A stretch of 64,000 nucleotides of DNA from Escherichia coli (GCF_029227855.1 NZ_CP074356.1); one strand, 5' to 3'. Positions 8,957 through 58,029 are shown, numbered from the stretch's first letter. Numbers and translations: made by a program. The notes: generated from the letters alone by a model not told the origin.

Positions 8957-9672
8957 TTAATTGTGCACAGAAAACCCCCAGCTAGGCTGGGGGTTCCGGA
9001 AAGCTTTCAGCTTTGAGCCAGTTATTAAAACCCCTTTTGATTTGTTAAAACACTTTGCGGTCTGGCAACTGCAAGTGTCAAACAAGAAATCAAAAGGGGG
9101 TCCCAATGGGGAACGAAAAGAGCTTAGCGCACACCCGATGGAACTGTAAATATCACATAGTTTTTGCGCCAAAATACCGAAGACAGGTGTTCTACAGAGA
9201 GAAGCGTAGAGCAATAGGCAGTATTTTGAGAAAGCTGTGTGAGTGGAAAAGCGTACGGATTCTGGAAGCTGAATGCTGTGCAGATCATATCCATATGCTT
9301 GTGGAGATCCCGCCCAAAATGAGCGTATCCGGGTTTATGGGATATCTGAAAGGGAAAAGCAGTCTGATGCTTTACGAGCAGTTTGGTGATTTGAAATTCA
9401 AATACAGGAACAGGGAGTTCTGGTGCAGAGGGTACTACGTCGATACAGTGGGTAAGAACACGGCGAAGATACAGGATTACATAAAGCACCAGCTTGAAGA
9501 GGATAAAATGGGAGAGCAGTTATCGATTCCCTATCCGGGCAGCCCGTTTACGGGCCGTAAGTAACGAAGTTGGATGCAAATGTCAGATCGTGTGCGCCTG
9601 TTAGGGCGCGGCTGGTAAGAGAGCCTTATAGGCGCATTTGAAAAACCTCCGGCTATGCCGGAGGATATTTAT
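8957..9672 (+). mobile_element. IS200 insertion sequence (IS200/IS605 family), about 0.7 kb; ends approximate
   Basis: Contains a 152-aa Y1 transposase essentially identical to IS200 TnpA as I recall it. Left-end terminator hairpin cccccagc-tag-gctggggg (about 8973-8993), long-range pairing ccccttttg/caaaagggg that would occlude the tnpA RBS, and right-end hairpin cctccggc-tat-gccggagg (about 9647-9665). Confidence 0.8.
9106..9564 (+). CDS. tnpA: IS200 transposase TnpA (HuH Y1 tyrosine transposase, 152 aa)
   Basis: ORF 9055..9564; protein from MGNEKSLAHTRWNCKYHIVFAPKYRRQVFY...HIHMLVEIPPK...YIKHQLEED matches IS200 TnpA (HuH motif HIH). Confidence 0.9.
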   Translation: MGNEKSLAHTRWNCKYHIVFAPKYRRQVFYREKRRAIGSILRKLCEWKSVRILEAECCADHIHMLVEIPPKMSVSGFMGYLKGKSSLMLYEQFGDLKFKYRNREFWCRGYYVDTVGKNTAKIQDYIKHQLEEDKMGEQLSIPYPGSPFTGRK

Positions 9673-11989: not shown

Positions 11990-12030
11990 TTGCCGGATAA
12001 TATAAAAAGTTATCCGGCAAATTATTTTTT
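11990..12030. terminator. Bidirectional terminator between convergent yggM and TRAP permease gene
   Basis: tgccggataa-tataaaaag-ttatccggca followed by attatttttt. Confidence 0.6.
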
Positions 12031-13330
12031 ACATTAGCCCTAGTAGCTGTGGAATGAACAAGGATATTTGCGGGATGTAAGTGATCATCATCAACGCGAT
12101 TAACAATGCGGCATAAAATGGCAGCAATGGTTTGATCAAATGTTGAATCTTCACACCTGAAATAGAACAACCAACAAATAGCGCACTACCCACCGGCGGT
12201 GTTAACAGCCCAATACAAAGGTTGGCCACCATCATAATACCGAAATGTACCGGATCCATTCCCAGCTCTTGTGCAATCGGCAAGAAGATTGGTGTGAAGA
12301 TTAGTACAGCCGGTGTCATGTCCATAAAGATGCCGACAATTAATAAGACGATATTAATCAGCAGCAATATGATCAGTGGGTTATCAGAAATCCCCATCAA
12401 CGCGTCGCTGATCATATAAGGAATATCAGCATTGGTCATTGACCAGGACATGCCCACGGAAAAACCGATCAACAGTAATACAATCGAAGTGGTAACAACC
12501 GATTCCAGAATCAGTTTGGGTAAATCGCGCCATTTTACTTCCCGGTAAATCAGCACCGAGAGAATAAATGTGTAGACAACGGCAATCGCAGACGCTTCAG
12601 TTGCGGTAAAAATGCCGCCCAGAATGCCGCCCATTACAATGAACACCAGAAGCAAACTTGGTAAGGCATCCAGAAACGCTTTACAGGCCTGAGCAAAGGT
12701 TGCTCTTTCTGAAAGTGGGTAGCCACGGCGTTTAGCAATAATGCCGCAGACTATCATTACCGCAAGACCCATTAAGATCCCTGGCAAATATCCCGCCATA
12801 AATAGCGATGCTACAGAAACGCCGCCAGCTGTCAGGGAAAACACAATTAACACGTTTGAGGGCGGTATCAGTAATCCAGTAATACAGGATGAGACGTTTA
12901 CAGCGGTAGAAAATGCCGGATCATAACCTTGTTTGGTCTGAATGGGATTCAGTGTGCCACCAACGGCAGCAGCTGCCGCAACGGCTGAACCAGAAATGGA
13001 ACCAAACATCATATTCGCCAGGACGTTCACATGACCAAGTGAACTAGGAACCCGACCAACCATTACCTGGGCGAGGTTAATCAAACGTATCGCAATACCG
13101 CCGCTGTTCATCAGCGTTCCGGCAAAGATGAAAAAGGGGATTGCCAATAGGGCAAAGTTATCCAGTCCATTAGCCAGTCGCTGCGAAACAGTGATTGCCG
13201 CGATATCCCAGGGAAACATCAACAGCATTGAAGCTACAGTGGCAATACCGATTGAGAACGAAATGGGCACACCAATAAAGACCAGCACAAAAAAACAGCC
13301 AAATAGTGTAAGCGCAATATAACTATCCAT
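12029..13330 (-). CDS. TRAP transporter large permease subunit (DctM family, 433 aa)
   Basis: Highly hydrophobic 433-aa ORF, MDSYIALTLFGCFFVLVFIGVPISFSIGIATVASMLLMFPWD...; typical DctM architecture. Start overlaps the stop of the upstream small permease. Confidence 0.85.
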   Translation of the reverse strand: MDSYIALTLFGCFFVLVFIGVPISFSIGIATVASMLLMFPWDIAAITVSQRLANGLDNFALLAIPFFIFAGTLMNSGGIAIRLINLAQVMVGRVPSSLGHVNVLANMMFGSISGSAVAAAAAVGGTLNPIQTKQGYDPAFSTAVNVSSCITGLLIPPSNVLIVFSLTAGGVSVASLFMAGYLPGILMGLAVMIVCGIIAKRRGYPLSERATFAQACKAFLDALPSLLLVFIVMGGILGGIFTATEASAIAVVYTFILSVLIYREVKWRDLPKLILESVVTTSIVLLLIGFSVGMSWSMTNADIPYMISDALMGISDNPLIILLLINIVLLIVGIFMDMTPAVLIFTPIFLPIAQELGMDPVHFGIMMVANLCIGLLTPPVGSALFVGCSISGVKIQHLIKPLLPFYAALLIALMMITYIPQISLFIPQLLGLM

Positions 13331-13842
13331 TAACTGGCCTCCTGCGCAGGTTGTTTCAGTTGTTGAATGCTTTGATTAATAAAACACAAGGCATAAAACA
13401 TCATCACCACTCCACTTAATGGCAGAATGATATATACGTATCCCATCGGTATTTGCATCGCGGCAGATACTTGTGATGTTGCCAGCGTTTTATCAATTAA
13501 TTTCAGGCCACCAGTCACAATGACCGAACCGGCAAAACCTAAAATGAGAATGTTAATGACTATACTAAGAAGTAATTGCTTGCGCTTATTCAGGGCGAGA
13601 GCAAATAAATCGATAGAGAGATGTCTCTGCGCGCCGACGGTATATGCAGCACCTAATAATCCTACCCAGATCATCAAAAAGCGTGCCAGCTCATCGGTTA
13701 ATGTACTTGGCTGGTTAAGTACGTAGCGGCTAAATACTTGCCAGACTACGCATACAACCAGAGCAAGCATTACGGCGACAGAAAACGCGGCAATGACGCG
13801 GTCTACCGCAAGTTTCAGGCGGTTAAATATCATTGTAAGCAT
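13330..13842 (-). CDS. TRAP transporter small permease subunit (DctQ family, 170 aa)
   Basis: 170-aa four-TM protein MLTMIFNRLKLAVDRVIAAFSVAVMLALVVCVVWQVFSRYVLNQPSTLTDELARF..., between the SBP and the large permease. Confidence 0.8.
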   Translation of the reverse strand: MLTMIFNRLKLAVDRVIAAFSVAVMLALVVCVVWQVFSRYVLNQPSTLTDELARFLMIWVGLLGAAYTVGAQRHLSIDLFALALNKRKQLLLSIVINILILGFAGSVIVTGGLKLIDKTLATSQVSAAMQIPMGYVYIILPLSGVVMMFYALCFINQSIQQLKQPAQEAS

Positions 13843-13877
13843 CCTGGAAAATCAGGGCCAGAGACTGGCCCGAAATA

Positions 13878-14864
13878 TTATTGAGCAGCGTTGTCGAATT
13901 TCTCTAACAAAGCAGCTTGTTTTGGATCTTTTTTGAAGTCGTCAAACAGAGGTTGAACTGCGGCACGGAATGGGGCTTTATCAACCTTAACGATTTCACC
14001 ACCCATAGCTTTCGCTTGAGCACGTGTGTCAGCGTCAATTTTTTCCCACAATTTTTGTTGATAAGCTTCGGATTTCTTCGCCGCTGTTTCGAGGATTTGT
14101 TGCTGTTCTGGGGTTAATTTATTCCATGTTTTGGTGGAGATAACCAAAAAGTCAGGAATTGAGGCATGTTCATCTTCAGAAAAGACTTTGGCAATTTCGA
14201 TATGTCGAGTCTGCACCCAGGAAGGCACGTTATTTTCTGCGCCATCTACTACACCTTGCTGCATCGCAGTATAAACTTCGCCAAATGAAATTGGAGTGGG
14301 TGAGCCACCCATCAGTTCAATCATTTTGATGGTGGTCGGGCTTGGCTGAACACGAATTTTCAGCCCTTTAAGATCTTCTGGCTTAGTAATCGGTTTTTTC
14401 GCATAGAAACTGCGTGTACCCGCTACATAAGCTGATAAAGCAAAAAAGCCTTTATCTTTTGTTGAATCCATAATTTCTTTACCAACTTCACCAAAAACCA
14501 CTTTGTTGAAGTGCGCCTGATCTTTAAATAAGAACGGCAAATTATAGATAGCATAAATATTATCAAAAGACTCCAGATCACTGGCGGAACCTTTGGTCAT
14601 ATCCAGTGCACCATTTTGCAACAACTCCATAGTTTCTCGCGCATTACCCATCTGGCTGCTGGGGTAAATACGGATCACCATATTACCTTTTGACAGCTGT
14701 TTTACTTCTTTCGCCAGCTTTTCAAAACTCTGATGTACAACATGACTTCTTTCCAGGTTGTGTGCTAACTTTAACGTCACTTTTTCTGCGGCGTTTACGC
14801 CAGTGCTAACCAGAGCCAGCAAGGATGCGCAGACTAATGAGCGGGTAAATGACCTCATTTTCAT
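13878..14864 (-). CDS. TRAP transporter periplasmic substrate-binding protein (DctP family, 328 aa)
   Basis: Signal peptide MKMRSFTRSLVCASLLALVSTGVNA, DctP-family fold; a conserved Arg (AGTRSFY) is consistent with carboxylate binding. Substrate unknown. Confidence 0.85.
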   Translation of the reverse strand: MKMRSFTRSLVCASLLALVSTGVNAAEKVTLKLAHNLERSHVVHQSFEKLAKEVKQLSKGNMVIRIYPSSQMGNARETMELLQNGALDMTKGSASDLESFDNIYAIYNLPFLFKDQAHFNKVVFGEVGKEIMDSTKDKGFFALSAYVAGTRSFYAKKPITKPEDLKGLKIRVQPSPTTIKMIELMGGSPTPISFGEVYTAMQQGVVDGAENNVPSWVQTRHIEIAKVFSEDEHASIPDFLVISTKTWNKLTPEQQQILETAAKKSEAYQQKLWEKIDADTRAQAKAMGGEIVKVDKAPFRAAVQPLFDDFKKDPKQAALLEKFDNAAQ

Positions 14865-45284: not shown

Positions 45285-46145
<861 letters not shown>

Positions 46146-46283
46146 TCAACGCTGAGGCCAGATAATACTCTCTGGCCTCTCTCTTATTAGTTTTTCTGAT
46201 TGCCAATTAATATTATCAATTTCCGCTAATAACAATCCCGCGATATAGTCTCTGCATCAGATACTTAATTCGGAATATCCAAC

Positions 46284-46919
46284 GTGTTTTCTTATTACTT
46301 TCAAGGTCTTGCGCTTGGCGCAGCTATGATCCTACCGCTCGGTCCACAAAATGCTTTTGTGATGAATCAGGGCATTCGTCGTCAGTACCACATTATGATT
46401 GCCTTACTTTGCGCTATCAGCGATTTGGTCCTGATTTGCGCCGGGATTTTTGGTGGCAGCGCGTTATTGATGCAGTCGCCGTGGTTGCTGGCGCTGGTCA
46501 CCTGGGGCGGCGTAGCCTTCTTGCTGTGGTATGGTTTTGGCGCTTTTAAAACAGCGATGAGCAGTAATATTGATTTAGCCAGTGCCGAAGTCCTGAAGCA
46601 AGGCAGATGGAAAATTATCGCCACCATGTTGGCAGTGACCTGGCTGAATCCGCATGTTTACCTGGATACTTTTGTTGTACTGGGCAGCCTTGGCGGGCAA
46701 CTTGATGTGGAACCAAAACGTTGGTTTGCGCTCGGGACTATTAGCGCCTCTTTCCTGTGGTTCTTTGGTCTGGCTATTCTCGCAGCCTGGCTGGCACCGC
46801 GCCTGCGCACGGCAAAATCACAACGCATTATCAATTTGGTTGTGGGATGTGTTATGTGGTTTATTGCCTTGCAGCTGGCGAGAGACGGTATTGCTCATGC
46901 ACAAGCCTTGTTCAGTTAG
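46284..46919 (+). CDS. argO: Arginine exporter (LysE family, GTG start)
   Basis: 211-aa [45 protein letters not shown]... starting at gtg. Confidence 0.9.
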
Positions 46920-47011
46920 GCGCTATCTGATGGAAAAATAAAACAGAGGCGCTAAGCTTGCCTCCAGAGGTCCTGAATTTTAGGCAAGTCAATTAACACG
47001 GAGAGACTAAC

Positions 47012-47752
47012 GTGAAGTTCAAAGTTATCGCCCTGGCGGCATTAATGGGTATTAGCGGGATGGCAGCGCAGGCTAACGAATTGCCGGATGGACCGCATAT
47101 TGTCACCTCCGGTACGGCAAGCGTGGATGCGGTGCCAGACATTGCCACTCTTGCGATTGAAGTCAACGTGGCCGCGAAGGATGCCGCTACTGCCAAGAAA
47201 CAGGCGGATGAGCGCGTCGCACAATACATTTCCTTCCTTGAACTCAATCAGATCGCGAAAAAAGATATCAGCTCAGCGAACTTACGCACCCAGCCAGATT
47301 ATGATTATCAGGATGGTAAAAGTATCCTGAAAGGCTACCGTGCTGTGAGAACGGTGGAAGTCACGCTCCGTCAGTTAGACAAACTGAATTCCTTGCTGGA
47401 TGGCGCGCTGAAGGCGGGTCTTAACGAAATTCGTTCTGTGTCGCTGGGCGTGGCGCAGCCGGATGCCTATAAAGACAAAGCGCGTAAGGCTGCGATTGAT
47501 AACGCGATTCATCAGGCGCAGGAACTGGCGAACGGCTTTCATCGTAAACTGGGGCCGGTATATAGCGTGCGCTACCATGTTTCCAACTATCAGCCCAGCC
47601 CAATGGTGCGGATGATGAAAGCCGATGCCGCGCCGGTGTCCGCCCAGGAAACTTACGAGCAGGCCGCTATTCAGTTTGATGATCAGGTCGATGTGGTCTT
47701 CCAGTTAGAACCTGTGGATCAACAACCCGCTAAAACACCTGCAGCACAATAA
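47012..47752 (+). CDS. yggE: DUF541 / SIMPL-domain periplasmic protein YggE (GTG start)
   Basis: 246-aa ORF with signal peptide MKFKVIALAALMGISGMAAQA. Confidence 0.88.
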   Translation: MKFKVIALAALMGISGMAAQANELPDGPHIVTSGTASVDAVPDIATLAIEVNVAAKDAATAKKQADERVAQYISFLELNQIAKKDISSANLRTQPDYDYQDGKSILKGYRAVRTVEVTLRQLDKLNSLLDGALKAGLNEIRSVSLGVAQPDAYKDKARKAAIDNAIHQAQELANGFHRKLGPVYSVRYHVSNYQPSPMVRMMKADAAPVSAQETYEQAAIQFDDQVDVVFQLEPVDQQPAKTPAAQ

Positions 47753-47759
47753 TATTTAT

Positions 47760-47790
47760 AGCCCGACGTATTCGTCGGGCTAATGCCTTT
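47760..47790 (+). terminator. Terminator-like hairpin after yggE
   Basis: agcccgacg-tatt-cgtcgggct followed by a weak T-tract. Confidence 0.5.
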
Positions 47791-47919
47791 ACCCGATATT
47801 GCCTCCTTTTTCTGTAATTTTCTGTAAAACCATGACGTAATCACCTATCTTTGCTCGCGGTTTCATCAAGGATAGGCTGACTGAAACGGTTAAGCGGACA
47901 AGGATGCGGGGGAGCGGGG

Positions 47920-48816
47920 ATGGACATTTTTATTTCGAAAAAGATGCGCAATTTCATTTTATTAGCGCAAACCAATAATATTGCCCGGGCGGCAGAAAAA
48001 ATCCATATGACGGCTTCGCCATTTGGTAAAAGCATTGCCGCGCTGGAAGAACAAATTGGCTATACGCTATTTACCCGCAAAGATAATAATATCAGCCTCA
48101 ATAAAGCCGGACAGGAACTGTATCAAAAACTGTTCCCGGTTTATCAACGGCTTTCTGCGATTGATAATGAAATCCATAACTCAGGGCGTCGTTCACGAGA
48201 AATTGTGATTGGCATAGATAATACTTATCCGACCATTATTTTTGATCAGTTGATTAGTCTCGGAGATAAGTACGAAGGCGTGACCGCCCAGCCAGTTGAG
48301 TTCAGCGAAAACGGCGTTATCGATAATCTTTTTGACCGTCAGTTAGATTTTATAATCTCCCCACAGCATGTATCTGCACGAGTTCAGGAACTGGAAAACC
48401 TGACTATCAGTGAACTACCACCGCTGCGATTGGGCTTTCTCGTTTCTCGCCGTTATGAAGAGCGACAAGAGCAAGAGCTGCTTCAGGAGCTACCCTGGCT
48501 GCAAATGCGCTTTCAGAACCGGGCCAACTTCGAAGCAATGATTGATGCGAATATGCGACCTTGTGGGATCAATCCAACCATTATTTATCGTCCCTACAGT
48601 TTTATGGCCAAAATCAGCGCCGTGGAGCGCGGACATTTTCTGACGGTGATCCCGCATTTTGCCTGGCGACTGGTGAATCCGGCAACGCTGAAATATTTTG
48701 ATGCGCCGCACAGGCCGATGTATATGCAGGAATATCTTTATTCAATCAGAAATCATCGTTATACCGCCACGATGCTTCAGCATATTGCTGAAGATCGTGA
48801 CGGGACGAGTCATTAA
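47920..48816 (+). CDS. ygfI: LysR-family transcriptional regulator YgfI (298 aa)
   Basis: N-terminal HTH (NIARAAEKIHMTASPFGKSIAALEEQIGYTLFTR) and LysR substrate-binding domain; position next to scpC as in K-12. Confidence 0.85.
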   Translation: MDIFISKKMRNFILLAQTNNIARAAEKIHMTASPFGKSIAALEEQIGYTLFTRKDNNISLNKAGQELYQKLFPVYQRLSAIDNEIHNSGRRSREIVIGIDNTYPTIIFDQLISLGDKYEGVTAQPVEFSENGVIDNLFDRQLDFIISPQHVSARVQELENLTISELPPLRLGFLVSRRYEERQEQELLQELPWLQMRFQNRANFEAMIDANMRPCGINPTIIYRPYSFMAKISAVERGHFLTVIPHFAWRLVNPATLKYFDAPHRPMYMQEYLYSIRNHRYTATMLQHIAEDRDGTSH

Positions 48817-50291
48817 CCCAGCATCGAGCCGGTTGCAATTAAATTACGGTGTAAATCGAAGACGTGGCTAAGATCGTGGTGAATATGTCCGCCGGGCGCA
48901 TTTTCCAGATAGCGATGCAGATAATCCCGATACATAGGATGTGCACAATTATCAATGATAGTGCGGGCGCGTTGAAGCGGGGAAAGACCACGCAGATCGG
49001 CGATGCCTTGTTCGGTGATGATCACTTTGACGCTGTGTTCGCTGTGATCAACATGGCTGCACATTGGCACGACGGTTGAGATCTTGCCTTCTTTAGCAAT
49101 CGACGGGGCCATAAAGATCGACAGATACGCGTTGCGTTCAAAATCACCGCTGCCACCGATGCCGTTCATCAGATCGACCCCGGCTACGTGCGTTGAGTTG
49201 GCATGCCCGTAAATATCAAACTCCAGGCCGACGTTCAGAGCGATGACGCCCAGACGACGGATGATTTCCGGGTTATTGGAAATTTCCTGCGGACGCAACA
49301 CAATGCGGCTGGCAAAGTAATCCATATTGTCGTAAATCTTGCGCAGGGAATCGGCCGAGATAGTCAGGCTGGAGGCGCTGGCCCCGCTGATTTTGCCGGT
49401 TTCCAGTAAATGCACCACCGATTCCTGTAGCACTTCCGAATACATCATAAACGGAGGAATTTCCGGGTTTTCCCCTAGTCGCGCCATGACTGCATTATTG
49501 ATGTTGCCTACGCCACTTTGCAGCGGCAGAAATTCCGGCGGAATACGCCCATGCGCCATTTCCTGCAACAAGAACGTGACCACGTTATCGGCAATCTGCT
49601 GGCACATGGGATTTTGCTTATCCAGCATATTACCGGCGTCAGGCAAGTTGGTTTCCACGACGGCGACAATCTTTTTCGGATCGATTTGCACATAGCGGGT
49701 ACCGACGCGATCCATTGCATGGAAGATCGACACGCTATTGCGCCGCGGTGGCGCGCCAGGAATCACAATATCTGCCAGTTCTGCAACGCGCGGATCGTGA
49801 TAGTGATTAAGTTCAATGATCACTTTCTTCGCTCGCAGCAGCCAGGTCGGCGCATTACCGATCCCGCTGGTTAACCAGACTCGACCATCCGGTGCCAGTG
49901 CCGATGCTTCGATGACGGCAACATCAATGTCGCCGAAGAAACCGTAATTGACCATTTGCGCCACTTCGCTCAAATGCAGGTCAACGAAACTCACCGCGCC
50001 CTGATTGATCTTTTTACGTAAACCGGACGATGTTTGATATGGCGCACGCCAGGAAACAGCATCGGCGTCAGAAAGTACATCGTCAGCGGCGGCGCTGATT
50101 GACGCCCCCGTCAGCAGGCGAATTTGATACGGCTTTTTGGCCTCATGCTGTTCGTTAGCTCTGCGGGCAATCGCGGTGGGTAAGGCTTTCGGCGAACCCG
50201 CTGGGGTAAAGCCGCTAAATGCCACCATGTCGTTATGCTGGATAATTTCTGCCGCTTCATCGGCGGTCATCCTTGTCCACTGAGTTTCCAT
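48813..50291 (-). CDS. scpC: Propionyl-CoA:succinate CoA-transferase (492 aa)
   Basis: METQWTRMTADEAAEIIQHNDMVAFSGFTPAGSPKALPTAIARRA...; convergent 4-nt overlap with ygfI. Confidence 0.9.
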   Translation of the reverse strand: METQWTRMTADEAAEIIQHNDMVAFSGFTPAGSPKALPTAIARRANEQHEAKKPYQIRLLTGASISAAADDVLSDADAVSWRAPYQTSSGLRKKINQGAVSFVDLHLSEVAQMVNYGFFGDIDVAVIEASALAPDGRVWLTSGIGNAPTWLLRAKKVIIELNHYHDPRVAELADIVIPGAPPRRNSVSIFHAMDRVGTRYVQIDPKKIVAVVETNLPDAGNMLDKQNPMCQQIADNVVTFLLQEMAHGRIPPEFLPLQSGVGNINNAVMARLGENPEIPPFMMYSEVLQESVVHLLETGKISGASASSLTISADSLRKIYDNMDYFASRIVLRPQEISNNPEIIRRLGVIALNVGLEFDIYGHANSTHVAGVDLMNGIGGSGDFERNAYLSIFMAPSIAKEGKISTVVPMCSHVDHSEHSVKVIITEQGIADLRGLSPLQRARTIIDNCAHPMYRDYLHRYLENAPGGHIHHDLSHVFDLHRNLIATGSMLG

Positions 50292-50314
50292 TTTAACTCC
50301 TTCGTTCGCAGGGA

Positions 50315-51100
50315 TTAATGACCAACGAAATTAGGTTTACGTTTTTCGAGGAAAGCGTTCATCCCTTCCTGGTAATCTTCGCTGTCATAAACCGCGCGGC
50401 GCATCCCCTGAATACGTTCAAATTCATCGGAGTTCATGGTGTGTGCTTCGCCCAGTACACGCAGCTCTTCTTTGATAACGGCAATGGCTAACGGCGCTTT
50501 CTCAGAGATGTGGTGCGCCATTTGTAAGGTGAAATCTTCCAGTTCTTCCACTTCCACAACATGGTTGAGGATGCCGACAGCCAGCGCGCGCTGGGCGGTG
50601 ATTGGCGAAGCGGTAAAAATCAGCTCTTTGACAATGTGGAAGCCCGCGTCGCGGGTCAGGTTGTGAATGCCGACCAGGTTATACGGGACGCCGAGGTTTA
50701 CAGGTGTCATTGAGAAGGTTGAGGTACTGGCGGCGATGATCAGATCGGAACTCATGATCATTTCAAATGCGCCACCCCAGACACTACCTTCCACCATCGA
50801 AATGATCGGTTTCGGGAATTTTTGGATCATGCGGGTGATTTGACGCAATGGATCATCATAGGAGAGCGGATCGCGACCGCCAGACGGCAGTTCGTGAATA
50901 TCGTGACCTGCGGAGAAGACTTTGGATCCACTCGGCGCGCGCAAAATGATACAGCGAATTTCCGGCCGGTTGAGATCGCTTAACGCCTGCATAAGATCAT
51001 CAATAAAGACTTTACTTAAGGCATTAAGTTTTCGGCCATAGTTAAACTCAATGACCGCCACTTTGTTGATAGTGACAACGTTCACATACTGATAAGACAT
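50315..51100 (-). CDS. scpB: Methylmalonyl-CoA decarboxylase (crotonase fold, 261 aa)
   Basis: ORF 50315..51142; protein from MSYQYVNVVTINKVAVIEFNYGRKLNALS; start trimmed. Confidence 0.9.
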   Translation of the reverse strand: MSYQYVNVVTINKVAVIEFNYGRKLNALSKVFIDDLMQALSDLNRPEIRCIILRAPSGSKVFSAGHDIHELPSGGRDPLSYDDPLRQITRMIQKFPKPIISMVEGSVWGGAFEMIMSSDLIIAASTSTFSMTPVNLGVPYNLVGIHNLTRDAGFHIVKELIFTASPITAQRALAVGILNHVVEVEELEDFTLQMAHHISEKAPLAIAVIKEELRVLGEAHTMNSDEFERIQGMRRAVYDSEDYQEGMNAFLEKRKPNFVGH

Positions 51101-51110
51101 AAAAATTCCT

Positions 51111-52106
51111 TTAATCAAAATATTGCGTCTGGATAAATTCACTGAGCTGCCGCAGGCCGGTGCGCGGTGAGAGCGTATTGTTTTTGACCGCTAAAAGCGT
51201 CTGGCGGTAATAGCGATCGAAATCTTCATTCGCGAACAGGTGATTCAGTACTTCTTCTTCGGTTTGTTTACGCAGCCATTCCACCGATTGTTGTTGCCGC
51301 ACTTGTTGTAATCGACCACTGGCAGTTAGCGCGGTTTTGAAGTCGATGATGGCGTGCCAGATCTCATCGATTCCACGTTTTTCCAGTGCGCTACAAGTCA
51401 GAACCCGTGGCTGCCATTCGTCGTATTTACGTCGCAGAATATGCAGAGCACTCTCGTACATATGCCGGGCAATGGCGACATTGGTATGGTTATCGCCATC
51501 GTCTTTGTTGATAACGATCAGATCTGCCACTTCCATCAGCCCCTTTTTAATGCCCTGCAGATCATCGCCGCCACCGGCAATTTGCAACGAGATAAAACAG
51601 TCCACCATGCGGGCGACTTCCGTTTCTGACTGCCCGACGCCAACCGTTTCGACAATCACTACGTCATAACCCGCCGCTTCGCATAACAGCATTAATTCCC
51701 GCGCTCGCTGACTGGCACCGCCCAGATGGCCGGAGGAGGGTACCGGGCGAATAAACGCCGCCTCGGCACGCGCAAGGTCATTCATGCGGGTTTTATCCCC
51801 GAGAATGCTACCGCCAGTGACCAGGCTGCTGGGATCGACCGCAATAACAGCAACCTTTAGTCCCTCACGAATCAACAACATGCCAAAGGCTTCAAGAAAG
51901 GTACTTTTCCCCGCGCCGGGTGTTCCGGTAACGCCCAGTCGCAGGGCGTTACCACAGAACGGCATAATGGCATCAAGCAGCTGCGTACTTAGCGCCTGAT
52001 GATGCGGGTGACGGCTTTCCACCAACGTCATGGCCTGGGCGAGCGTGGCACGCTCACCCTGACGTAAGCGGCGAATACTTTCTGCCAGTGTGGCTTCATT
52101 AATCAT
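51111..52106 (-). CDS. argK: Methylmalonyl-CoA mutase-associated GTPase (MeaB/ArgK, 331 aa)
   Basis: P-loop GTPGAGKST; [36 protein letters not shown]...; 8-nt overlap with scpA. Confidence 0.9.
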
Positions 52107-54243
52107 GATGCTGGCTTATCAGATTCAGTACGTCGCGCACGCTGTCGAGCATAGGCGTACCTGGACCATAAATCGCCGCCACGCCGCGCTCTTGCAGGAA
52201 GGCGTAATCCTGCGGCGGAATGACGCCACCGGCGACCACGCAGATATCTTTGCGTCCCCATTTTTTCAGCGCTTCGACCAGTTCCGGGATCAGCGTTTTA
52301 TGACCGGCAGCCAGTGAGGATGCGCCCACTACGTGAACGTCGTTTTCTACGGCCAGGCGGGCGATCTCTTCAGGTGTAGAGAACATCGGGCTTAAATCTA
52401 CGTCGAAACCGAGATCGGAATAGGCGCTGGCGATCACTTTCGCGCCGCGATCGTGCCCATCCTGGCCCATTTTGGCGATCAGAATGCGCGGACGACGACC
52501 ATTGTCGGCAAGGAACTGCTCCGTTTGCGCAACAATGGCATCGAACTCGGAGGCCGATTTCTCAGACTGATGATAGCTTTGCGCAATCACGCCGGTAACA
52601 CACTGGCTTGGCACCAGATAACGGTCGAAAGCGGCTTCCAGCGCATCGGAAATTTCACCCAGGGTGGCGCGAACGCGAGCAGCATTAACAGCGGCAGCCA
52701 GCAGGTTTTCGTTATGCTGTGCGGCGTGAGTCAGGGCGTTCAACGCGGCGGTTACGGCGGCATCATCACGGGTGGCGCGAATGCGTTCCAGCGAAGCAAT
52801 TTGCTCGTTACGCACCATCACGTTGTCGATCTCAAGTACATCGGTTTCGTCTTCGTGATCCAGTTTGTACTTGTTGACACCAACGATGACACGCTTGCCC
52901 TGGTCGATCAGCGACTGTTCGCGCGCTGAGGCCTCTTCGATCATTCGTTTTGGCAGACCTGCTTCGATCGCTTTCGCCATACCACCGGCTTCGTCGATCT
53001 GTTGGATAATAGCTCTGGCTTGTTTGACGATTTGATCGGTCAGCGACTCAACGTAATAGGATCCGGCCAGTGGATCGACGGTGCGGCAGAGTTCTGATTC
53101 TTCCTGAATGATGATCTGGGTATTGCGGGCAATGCGTGCTGAGAAATCGGTAGGCAAACCAAGCGCTTCATCAAAGGCGTTGGTATGCAGTGACTGAGTA
53201 CCGCCCAGCGTTGCAGCCAGTGCTTCAATGGTGGTGCGGATAACGTTGTTATACGGATCCTGTTCAGTCAGGCTCCAGCCTGAGGTCTGGCAGTGGGTAC
53301 GCAGCGCCAGTGATTTCGGATCCTGTGCGCCAAATCCACTGACCGCTTCGCTCCATAAATAACGTGCCGCACGCAACATGGCGACGTTCATAAACAGATC
53401 CATGCCAATGCCGAAGAAGAACGACAGGCGAGGAGCGAAGTCATCAATTTTCAGCCCAGCGGATATTGCTGCTTTGATGTACTCAATCCCATCGGCGAGC
53501 GTAAATGCTACCTGCTGCACGCAGTTGGCACCCGCTTCACCCATGTGGTAACCGCTGATACTGATGGTATTAAATCGCGGCATGTTGCCGGAACACCAGG
53601 CGATGATGTCGGCGATAATGCGCATTGACGGTTTTGGCGGGTAAATATAGGTGTTGCGGCAGAGGTACTCTTTGAGGATATCGTTTTGAATGGTGCCGGT
53701 CAGTTTATCAGGTGTAACACCTTGCTCTTCCGCGGCGACGATATAAAACGCCAGTACTGGTAGCACTGCGCCATTCATGGTCATCGAAACCGACATTTTA
53801 TCCAGCGGGATCTGGTCGAACAGGACTTTCATATCTTCCACGGTGTCGATAGCGACGCCCGCTTTGCCGACGTCGCCCGCCACGCGTGGGTTATCGGAGT
53901 CGTAGCCTCGGTGGGTGGCAAGGTCAAACGCAACGGAAAGACCTTTTTGCCCGGCGGCCAGGTTACGGCGATAAAAAGCGTTGGACTCTTTTGCTGTTGA
54001 AAAACCAGCATACTGACGGATGGTCCACGGTTGGGCGGTATACATAGTGGCACGCGGGCCACGAACGTAGGGAGGCAAACCAGGAAGGGTACCTGTCACC
54101 TCCAGATTATCGAGATCGGCTTCGGTATACAGCGGCTTGATGGCGATCCCTTCCGCGGTTTGCTGAACCAGCGAGTCGACAGTTTTCTCCCGACGGCTCA
54201 ATTCCTTGTTGGCAAGCTGTTGCCACTCCTGCACGTTAGACAT
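52099..54243 (-). CDS. scpA: Methylmalonyl-CoA mutase (Sbm/ScpA, 714 aa)
   Basis: ORF 52099..54264; protein from [25 protein letters not shown]; B12-binding C-terminal domain; start trimmed. Confidence 0.92.
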
Positions 54244-54446
54244 TATTTGCTCCGTAAAACGCAATCAAAATGAGGGTATTTGCGCCTACGGTGAGCTTTT
54301 TACGTGGGTTTGTCGCCAGCAAAAAAAATGCATTCAGACGTCGTTTTTTGCCGCCTGAGATTTGTCTATTTTGTGATGTGATTCAAGGAATACAAAAAGA
54401 AGTGAGGACAACGCCTGATATGTGCTATCAGGCATTATTTGATGGA

Positions 54447-55340
54447 TTAATCCTGACGAAGGACTTTGTGACCATAATCGAGTAACGCATCAGTGACTTT
54501 ACGCATCATGCGGCTTTCAGGAGCAAAGCGGTGCCAGTAGAGCATCCGTCGTTGAAATAGCCCAGGCGTTAAGTCAATCAGTTCACCGCTGGCCAGCTCT
54601 TTCTCGATTTGCAGGTGCGGGATCATACAGCAGGTGGTGCCCTGGCGAGCAAGTTGCACGAACGCTTCTGAAGAATTAACAATATGGCACGGTACGCTGC
54701 CTGGGGGCAGATCGAAGTTTTGCTGCAAAAAGGCCTGGTGCATATCGTCAAGATGGTCAAAGGCGACCACTGGCGCTTTTAGCAGAGCCGAACGCGTTAC
54801 GCCGTTAGGGAAATATTTTTCGGCAAACGGTTTTGAGCTGACGAATAGATAGTCGAGCGCACCGAGCTTATCGACAAGACAACTCGGCAGCGCCTGATGT
54901 TGAATACTCACCGCGCCGACCACTTCGCCGCGGCGCAGACGTTCCTGAGTGCGGGTTTCATCTTCTACCTGCAAGTTGAGGCGGATAGGCGAATCAGCTA
55001 ACACAGGAGCCAGCGCCGGAAGCAACCACGTCGCCAGACTGTCTGCGTTGACCGCCAGTGAAAGCAGCAGCGGAGTCGAACCGGTTTGTTCATCGCCCAG
55101 CCACTCTTCTTCCAGCAACTCCACCTGGCGCAGCAGTGCCAGCAGTTTTTGCCCTTGTTCTGTCGGGCGCGGCGGTACGGTACGCACCAACAGCGGCTGC
55201 CCGAACATATTTTCCAGTTGCTTAATGCGCTGTGAGACGGCTGATTGTGTAATGCACAGCTTTTGTGCCGCGCGCTCAAATCCTCGTTCACGTATCACCG
55301 CATCCAGTGCCTGTAATGTTCTGTAGTCCGGGCGTTTCAT
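54447..55340 (-). CDS. argP: LysR-family regulator ArgP (IciA, 297 aa)
   Basis: ORF 54447..55406; protein from [43 protein letters not shown]; start trimmed. Confidence 0.92.
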
Positions 55341-55722
55341 TGCTGTTGTCTGCTCCTGGTAAATGCTTTTTCCTGCACTATGACACAATTTTGTGTCAGG
55401 TTGCATATACCGAAGCCGTCGGCGGGTAACATTTGTATCAATGGTTAAACGCGCAGCTTAAAAGATCAGGGATTTGCGCTATTGCATTTCGCTTAGCGAC
55501 TTCGCGCCCTGGTTATGTTGAATGGCGTGGCGTTATTGCCTCTGTTCGCACCGTGGAGCGGCATACCCAGACCGTTGTATGCTTTATTTGCCGGGCGAAA
55601 GGGGATGCCCGCCATTGCGCGATATTTTATGGATGAGTTAACCACGCGGCTTGCCAACGGGGTCTGAATCGCTTTTTTTGTATATAATGCGTGTGAAATT
55701 TCATACCACAGGCGAAACGATC

Positions 55723-56382
55723 ATGACGCAGGATGAATTGAAAAAAGCAGTAGGATGGGCGGCACTTCAGTATGTTCAGCCCGGCACCATTGTTGGTGTA
55801 GGTACAGGTTCCACCGCCGCACACTTTATTGACGCGCTCGGCACGATGAAAGGCCAGATTGAAGGGGCCGTTTCCAGTTCGGATGCTTCCACTGAAAAAC
55901 TGAAAAGCCTCGGCATTCACGTTTTTGATCTCAACGAAGTCGACAGCCTTGGCATCTACGTTGATGGCGCAGATGAAATCAACGGCCACATGCAAATGAT
56001 CAAAGGCGGCGGCGCGGCGCTGACCCGTGAAAAAATCATTGCTTCGGTTGCGGAAAAATTTATCTGTATTGCCGACGCTTCCAAGCAGGTTGATATTCTG
56101 GGCAAATTCCCGCTGCCAGTAGAAGTTATCCCGATGGCACGTAGTGCAGTGGCGCGCCAGCTGGTGAAACTGGGCGGTCGTCCGGAATACCGTCAGGGCG
56201 TGGTGACCGATAACGGCAACGTGATCCTCGACGTCCACGGCATGGAAATCCTTGACCCGATAGCGATGGAAAACGCCATAAATGCGATTCCTGGCGTGGT
56301 GACTGTTGGCTTGTTTGCTAACCGTGGCGCGGACGTTGCGCTGATTGGCACACCTGACGGTGTCAAAACCATTGTGAAATGA
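55723..56382 (+). CDS. rpiA: Ribose-5-phosphate isomerase A (219 aa)
   Basis: ORF 55651..56382; protein from [39 protein letters not shown]; start trimmed. Confidence 0.94.
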
Positions 56383-56637
56383 TCTGACGGGGGAACCTCC
56401 CCCGTTAAAAAAATTCTCTTCATTAAATTTGGTGACATGTGTCACGTTTTTACCTGGCTATTGTCGATTGCTCTAAATAAACCCTCTAAACCAGCATATT
56501 CATCCAAGAAATACCTTTGCGTGATATTTCCTCAACATCGCGACGCAAACGTTCATATTGCCGCAATATTATTTTTTGATATGTTGAAAGGCGGATGCAA
56601 ATCCGCACACAACATTTCAAAAGACAGGATTGGGTAA

Positions 56638-57870
56638 ATGGCAAAGGTATCGCTGGAGAAAGACAAGATTAAGTTTCTGCTGGTAGAAGGCGTGCACCAA
56701 AAGGCGCTTGAAAGCCTTCGTGCAGCGGGTTACACCAACATCGAATTTCACAAAGGCGCGCTGGATGATGAACAATTAAAAGAATCCATCCGCGATGCCC
56801 ACTTCATCGGCCTGCGATCCCGTACCCATCTGACTGAAGACGTGATCAACGCCGCAGAAAAACTGGTCGCTATTGGCTGTTTCTGTATCGGAACAAACCA
56901 GGTTGATCTGGATGCGGCGGCAAAACGCGGTATCCCGGTATTTAACGCACCGTTCTCAAATACGCGCTCTGTTGCGGAGCTGGTGATTGGCGAACTGCTG
57001 CTGCTATTGCGCGGCGTGCCGGAAGCCAATGCTAAAGCGCACCGTGGCGTGTGGAACAAACTGGCGGCGGGTTCTTTTGAAGCGCGCGGCAAAAAGCTGG
57101 GTATCATCGGCTACGGTCATATTGGTACGCAATTGGGCATTCTGGCTGAATCGCTGGGAATGTATGTTTACTTTTATGATATTGAAAACAAACTGCCGCT
57201 GGGCAACGCCACTCAGGTACAGCATCTTTCTGACCTGCTGAATATGAGCGATGTGGTGAGTCTGCATGTACCAGAGAATCCGTCCACCAAAAATATGATG
57301 GGTGCGAAAGAGATTTCACTAATGAAGCCCGGCTCGCTGCTGATTAATGCTTCGCGCGGTACTGTGGTGGATATTCCGGCGCTGTGTGACGCGCTGGCGA
57401 GCAAACATCTGGCGGGGGCGGCAATCGACGTATTCCCGACGGAACCGGCAACCAATAGCGATCCATTTACCTCTCCGCTGTGTGAATTCGACAACGTCCT
57501 TCTGACGCCACACATTGGCGGTTCGACTCAGGAAGCGCAGGAGAATATCGGCCTGGAAGTTGCGGGTAAATTGATCAAGTATTCTGACAATGGCTCAACG
57601 CTCTCTGCGGTGAACTTCCCGGAAGTCTCGCTGCCACTGCACGGTGGGCGTCGTCTGATGCACATCCACGAAAACCGTCCGGGCGTGCTAACTGCGCTGA
57701 ACAAAATCTTCGCCGAGCAGGGCGTCAACATCGCCGCGCAATATCTACAAACTTCCGCCCAGATGGGTTATGTGGTTATTGATATTGAAGCCGACGAAGA
57801 CGTTGCCGAAAAAGCGCTGCAGGCAATGAAAGCTATTCCGGGTACCATTCGCGCCCGTCTGCTGTACTAA
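56638..57870 (+). CDS. serA: D-3-phosphoglycerate dehydrogenase (410 aa)
   Basis: MAKVSLEKDKIKFLLVEGVHQKALESLRAAGYTNIEFHKGALDDEQLKE...; C-terminal ACT domain. Confidence 0.95.
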   Translation: MAKVSLEKDKIKFLLVEGVHQKALESLRAAGYTNIEFHKGALDDEQLKESIRDAHFIGLRSRTHLTEDVINAAEKLVAIGCFCIGTNQVDLDAAAKRGIPVFNAPFSNTRSVAELVIGELLLLLRGVPEANAKAHRGVWNKLAAGSFEARGKKLGIIGYGHIGTQLGILAESLGMYVYFYDIENKLPLGNATQVQHLSDLLNMSDVVSLHVPENPSTKNMMGAKEISLMKPGSLLINASRGTVVDIPALCDALASKHLAGAAIDVFPTEPATNSDPFTSPLCEFDNVLLTPHIGGSTQEAQENIGLEVAGKLIKYSDNGSTLSAVNFPEVSLPLHGGRRLMHIHENRPGVLTALNKIFAEQGVNIAAQYLQTSAQMGYVVIDIEADEDVAEKALQAMKAIPGTIRARLLY

Positions 57871-57888
57871 TTCCCCTTCTCTGAAAAT

Positions 57889-57922
57889 CAACGGGCAGGT
57901 CACTGACTTGCCCGTTTTTTTA
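57889..57922 (+). terminator. Rho-independent terminator after serA
   Basis: acgggcaggtca-c-tgacttgcccgt followed by ttttttt. Confidence 0.75.
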
Positions 57923-58029
57923 TCCCTTCTCCACACTGTTGCCGCGTTGCGCATTCTACTTTGCGAGTCTGCTCCAGAAAATAAATCAAAGTCAGATCAA
58001 TGCATTGTGTTTATTTAATGGGGATTTAC

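Follow-up and report, generated by a model that had tools for sequence, protein, structure and literature searches.

The scpA-argK-scpB-scpC operon of Escherichia coli, the 'sleeping beauty mutase' operon of K-12 MG1655 (PMC3850637), is a textbook locus that is physiologically puzzling. The literature describes it as silent (PMC3850637, PMC5512728). We asked whether the copy in a 64,000-nucleotide stretch of E. coli DNA (NZ_CP074356.1, hereafter the window) is an undamaged and ordinary form of this operon, and how it relates to the E. coli genomes in which the operon is missing. The comparisons below make it virtually certain that this locus represents the scpA(sbm)-argK-scpB-scpC operon of the E. 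coli chromosome, in its ancestral, undamaged form.

Layout and integrity of the operon

All four genes lie on the minus strand, between argP and ygfI, in the order scpA-argK-scpB-scpC and with the K-12 spacings of -8, +10 and +23 nt. According to the ORF list and the RefSeq annotation of NZ_AP045174.1, scpA/sbm occupies positions 52099-54243 (714 aa), argK/meaB/ygfD 51111-52106 (331 aa), scpB/ygfG 50315-51100 (261 aa) and scpC/ygfH 48813-50291 (492 aa). The annotated genome belongs to E. coli strain JNEC-KY178 and is 100% identical to the window over positions 48000-56000 (8 kb); 6 SNPs separate the two over the window's first 45 kb. The original prediction had set the limits of the operon at 48813 and 54243, and the ORF list and RefSeq annotation agree with it to the base: 48813 is the scpC stop and 54243 the scpA start. 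Its 8-nt overlap between scpA and argK could likewise be read directly from the junction sequence (ATGATTAA, 52099-52106). The genes argK and scpB are separated by 10 nt, and scpB and scpC by 23 nt. An alternative, longer scpB frame in the ORF list, starting at a GTG at 51142, was rejected; the ATG at 51100 matches the K-12 annotation and is preceded by an AGGA ribosome-binding site.

Downstream of the operon, a LysR-family regulator gene is encoded on the plus strand (47920-48816; ORF list and RefSeq annotation of NZ_AP045174.1) and converges on scpC. As predicted, the two genes share 4 nt (TTAA, 48813-48816), in which both stop codons are interlocked. The current name of this gene, formerly ygfI, is srsR. 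Its product scored 635 bits against NF047842 (cut-off 425) and does not differ from that of K-12 b2921. The paper characterising SrsR/YgfI makes no mention of the scp genes, so nothing links SrsR to operon regulation here. On the other side lies argP (54447-55340, minus strand; annotation carried over from NZ_AP045174.1), which also encodes a protein without differences from its K-12 counterpart. The 203-nt argP-scpA intergenic region (54244-54446, minus strand) contains a hairpin directly after the argP stop (54413-54433), the scpA leader and a GGAG ribosome-binding site.

The integrity of the operon was assessed gene by gene against E. coli K-12 MG1655 (b2917-b2920, with srsR as b2921). The K-12 operon occupies the same site and agrees in gene order and length, in its start and stop codons, and in every overlap and gap. 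In full-length comparison the four genes were equal in length to their orthologues, began with ATG, ended with TAA and contained zero internal stops or frameshifts, which upholds the prediction that all four are intact. Identity to K-12 is 98.3% across the region, and no indels were found over the 5.4 kb. The window copy differs from K-12 by 10 amino acid substitutions in total. Four are in ScpA (H27Q, I398V, V537A and E665K; 98.55% nucleotide identity to b2917, 99.4% or 710/714 amino acid identity), four in ArgK (R35H, Y50F, T54A and P95L; 97.09% nucleotide identity to b2918) and two in ScpC (N11D and V277E; 98.24% nucleotide identity to b2920), and ScpB has 0 (99.36% nucleotide identity to b2919). 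Of these substitutions, P95L in ArgK is rare within E. coli. Set against 81 synonymous differences, these 10 non-synonymous differences give a dN/dS of 0.038. A value of about 0.04 relative to K-12 indicates that the genes are under purifying selection, and therefore that the operon, where it is kept, is maintained by selection.

The encoded proteins and the ArgK P95L substitution

Each product was compared with NCBIfam models and scored above the curated cut-off of its family, with the match extending from end to end; ArgK and ScpC were also compared with solved structures. ScpA matched the NCBIfam equivalog NF006944 over residues 5-713 with 1252 bits (cut-off 876), and contains both a substrate-binding N-terminal domain (TIGR00641, residues 28-547) and a C-terminal B12-binding domain (TIGR00640, residues 583-713). 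Inside the TIGR00640 match, residues 595-600 read DGHDRG, an instance of DxHxxG, the cobalamin-binding motif that is the source of the lower axial His ligand. From its near-identity to the K-12 enzyme, characterised as a mutase (Haller et al. 2000, pmid 10769117, as cited in PMC3850637; PMC5512728), we infer that ScpA is an adenosylcobalamin-dependent methylmalonyl-CoA mutase.

ScpB matched NF008506 along its whole length (coverage 1-261/261; 487 bits, cut-off 257). His66 and Tyr140, which we take from the YgfG structure paper to be the catalytic residues, are both present. By reference to its K-12 orthologue, ScpB is predicted to be a biotin-independent methylmalonyl-CoA decarboxylase of crotonase fold. 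ScpC scored 754 bits against TIGR03458 (cut-off 659) and 602 bits against NF053853 (cut-off 500), and could be aligned end to end with the solved CoA-transferases 2nvv and 4eu3. Its SEVLQ (residue 285) and GIGGSGDF (residue 377) blocks fell on the corresponding blocks of both structures; the Glu of the SEV(L/I)Q block is presumably the nucleophile, going by the work on AarC. The substituted residue 277 (V277E) is a variable site among homologues and is Asp in 2nvv. ScpC probably acts, like its K-12 orthologue, as a propionyl-CoA:succinate CoA-transferase of the YgfH subfamily.

ArgK scored 494 bits against NF006958 (cut-off 329) and aligned along its entire length with 2p67, a solved E. coli structure (E = 3e-216). 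Its G-domain motifs comprise a P-loop (GTPGAGKS, residues 61-68), ETVGVGQ at 153 and NKDD at 200. Model score, G-domain motifs and a gene adjoining the mutase gene together identify it as a MeaB/ArgK G-protein chaperone. The original prediction had counted all four genes as members of the succinate-to-propionate pathway. The identity and order of the genes stand, but argK/meaB encodes a G-protein chaperone of the mutase and not a pathway enzyme.

The ArgK substitutions raise the possibility that the operon is intact in sequence and yet that P95L alters or impairs the chaperone step, such that protection of the mutase or loading of its cofactor would be unlike that in K-12. The substitution (CCG to CTG at window position 51823) is located in the conserved DPSSxxTGGS block of ArgK, which we take to correspond to a part of switch I in Methylobacterium extorquens MeaB. 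It is also rare: the exact 61-mer around it occurs in 2/4052 complete E. coli genomes, and the nearest other alleles mismatch it at precisely that base. However, the structure alignments place the substituted positions of ArgK at sites that vary among homologues. Residue 54 (T54A) is Ala in MeaB, and position 95 itself is not conserved, being Pro in E. coli K-12 and Thr in both M. extorquens MeaB and the M. tuberculosis homologue; moreover, the P95L allele is common to a second strain. Because position 95 varies among homologues, a functional effect of P95L is possible but unlikely, and we consider an operon with an altered chaperone step improbable. The specific proposal that P95L changes the chaperone gating of cofactor loading or the protection of the mutase appears more doubtful still; if it were true, P95L would be a natural variant of use in studies of G-protein chaperone signalling.

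Frequency, deletion and expression

The segment 48000-56000 of the window was matched in 5425/5426 complete E. coli genomes. In 4273 of these 5425 genomes (79%) the operon is in one piece, counted as such when a single location contained 80% or more of it. The original prediction had called its intactness worth noting, yet not novel. Only the second judgement holds: the operon is near-identical to that of K-12 and common in the species, and intactness is unremarkable in an operon that is unbroken in 79% of complete genomes. The operon is a real, ordinary E. coli form, already known and not new. As a standard copy it matters little in itself; the useful by-products of the analysis are quantitative, in that the intact operon proves to be the majority state.

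Most of the remaining genomes retain approximately 20% of the operon, as a 5' stub of scpA and a 3' stub of scpC. A deletion of 4258 bp which, mapped onto the window, corresponds to positions 48967-53224 is present in about 21% of the complete genomes, CFT073 included. The deletion removes scpA from codon 340, the entire argK and scpB genes, and scpC to approximately codon 442. Its junction falls within an imperfect 15-nt direct repeat (TCAATGATAGTGCGG, 48952-48966, and TCAATGGTGGTGCGG, 53225-53239) and is shared by about 1100 genomes. In the deletion allele, which CFT073 and about 1150 further complete E. coli genomes carry, the flanking argP and srsR genes and the first 339 codons of scpA are as in the window, which represents the undeleted state. 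The absent state is one lineage-specific 4.26-kb deletion, exemplified by CFT073, and the absence of the operon from CFT073-like genomes can be traced to this single deletion between short repeats. One strain lost the locus via an IS1 element instead. A search of the literature for a description of a B2-type scpA-scpC deletion found nothing relevant.

With regard to expression, the 203 nt between argP and scpA are the same as in K-12 at 203/203 positions, so the expression behaviour of K-12 should apply here. In K-12 the operon is hardly expressed, possibly owing to a weak promoter (PMC3850637). A scan for sigma-70 promoters yielded no consensus-like site upstream of scpA on the minus strand at the scan threshold; the three sites that it returned all lie within genes and on the plus strand, and their total is lower than in shuffled sequences. 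Across window positions 46000-58000, a search against Rfam found neither a cobalamin riboswitch nor a member of any other family. Poor expression would fit the combination of a promoter region identical to that of K-12 and no consensus sigma-70 site. For a sigma-S RNA polymerase, a ChIP-seq peak has been assigned to scpA in K-12 (PMC4447067), and the title of Froese et al. 2009 (pmid 18950999) reports that sbm is expressed. We infer co-transcription and low expression of the four genes from what has been published on their near-identical K-12 orthologues.

That the locus, although intact in sequence, is a decaying and functionless relic en route to loss is a most improbable reading: it could draw on the deletion in about 21% of complete genomes, the further loss through IS1, the silent reputation of the operon and the upstream region without a consensus sigma-70 promoter, but it is opposed by a dN/dS unlike that expected under relaxed selection, by the 4273 genomes that retain the operon in one piece, by the sigma-S polymerase peak at scpA and by the published title that reports sbm expression. 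Its 'silent' reputation notwithstanding, purifying selection on the operon is strong.

Pathway model and comparison with known systems

In the pathway that the four genes are predicted to support, which follows the published scheme (PMC3850637, PMC5512728), ScpA would isomerise succinyl-CoA to methylmalonyl-CoA using adenosylcobalamin, ScpB would decarboxylate methylmalonyl-CoA, giving propionyl-CoA, and ScpC would move the CoA from propionyl-CoA onto succinate, releasing propionate and regenerating succinyl-CoA. ArgK/MeaB would be bound to the mutase as its GTPase chaperone, in keeping with the ArgK/YgfD-mutase interaction for which PMC3850637 cites Froese et al. 2009 (pmid 18950999). The four genes would form one tightly packed transcription unit downstream of argP. 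To our knowledge, E. coli has no de novo B12 synthesis, and activity of the pathway would therefore depend on external cobalamin or cobinamide. It has been argued that the pathway is incomplete in E. coli, which is without a methylmalonyl-CoA epimerase, and the native operon gave no propionate from glucose unless this epimerase was added (PMC5512728). Given this requirement, the simple cycle from succinate to propionate may not operate as depicted. For strain engineering, the native genes for propionyl-CoA formation are present in this strain.

The enzyme and chaperone families of the operon are shared with M. extorquens, Propionibacterium and human (MUT/MMAA). ArgK was aligned end to end with the MeaB structures 2qm7/8dpb (E = 1e-90), and was also aligned with the human MMAA structure 2www. 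Both domains of the mutase are found in ScpA; the E. coli enzyme is alpha-only and encoded by a single gene, whereas that of Propionibacterium is an alpha/beta heterodimer. The E. coli system further differs from the others in the steps that follow the mutase: its partners in E. coli are a crotonase-type decarboxylase and a CoA-transferase, and in other systems an epimerase together with a carboxylase or transcarboxylase (PMC5512728).

Loss of the scp operon in other genomes

The scpA-argK-scpB-scpC operon, intact in the window (48813-54243, minus strand), is interrupted in approximately 21% of complete E. coli genomes, CFT073 among them, by a 4258-bp deletion that joins a 5′ stub of scpA to a 3′ stub of scpC. 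The sequence equivalent to window 48967-53224 is absent from the loci L003, L005 and L007 (6801-7856) of other E. coli genomes, and the deletion junction lies within a 15-nt direct repeat whose two copies, at window 48952-48966 and 53225-53239, match imperfectly. In most genomes with this deletion, an additional 53 bp (window 53264-53316) is missing as well. In one deletion-carrying genome (L003, NZ_CP142953.1), the annotation marks srsR itself (1608-2504) as a pseudogene that contains an internal stop.

The loss of the locus in strain MB51 (L004, NZ_CP073946.1, 3070-4576) is an independent event. Window 48083-53667 is absent from this strain, and an IS1A element stands in place of the stretch running from inside srsR to the middle of scpA.

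ArgK P95L and genes annotated elsewhere in the window

The window encodes a rare substitution, P95L, in ArgK (argK codon 95, window 51823). Among the 4052 complete genomes of E. coli, only JNEC-KY178 and Z1323HEC0462 contain the exact 61-mer surrounding this codon. The annotation of the near-identical RefSeq record (NZ_AP045174.1, JNEC-KY178) places an IS200C transposase gene at window 9106-9564, flanked by yggN and ansB, and the three genes of a TRAP transporter between yggM and hemW (window 12029-14864).

Length differences and the yqfE remnant

Several genomes (H5-H7 and H10) matched the 8001-nt query (window 48000-56000) as two pieces spanning 8123 nt, and therefore carry, at some point within this stretch, an insertion of ~122 bp that is absent from the window. 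Between argP and rpiA, the yqfE remnant, a LysR fragment (window 55483-55667) in which the identical RefSeq record annotates no CDS, is more eroded in the window: the remnant measures 231 nt in both K-12 and CFT073, and alignment of the window copy with that of K-12 contains 45 gapped positions.
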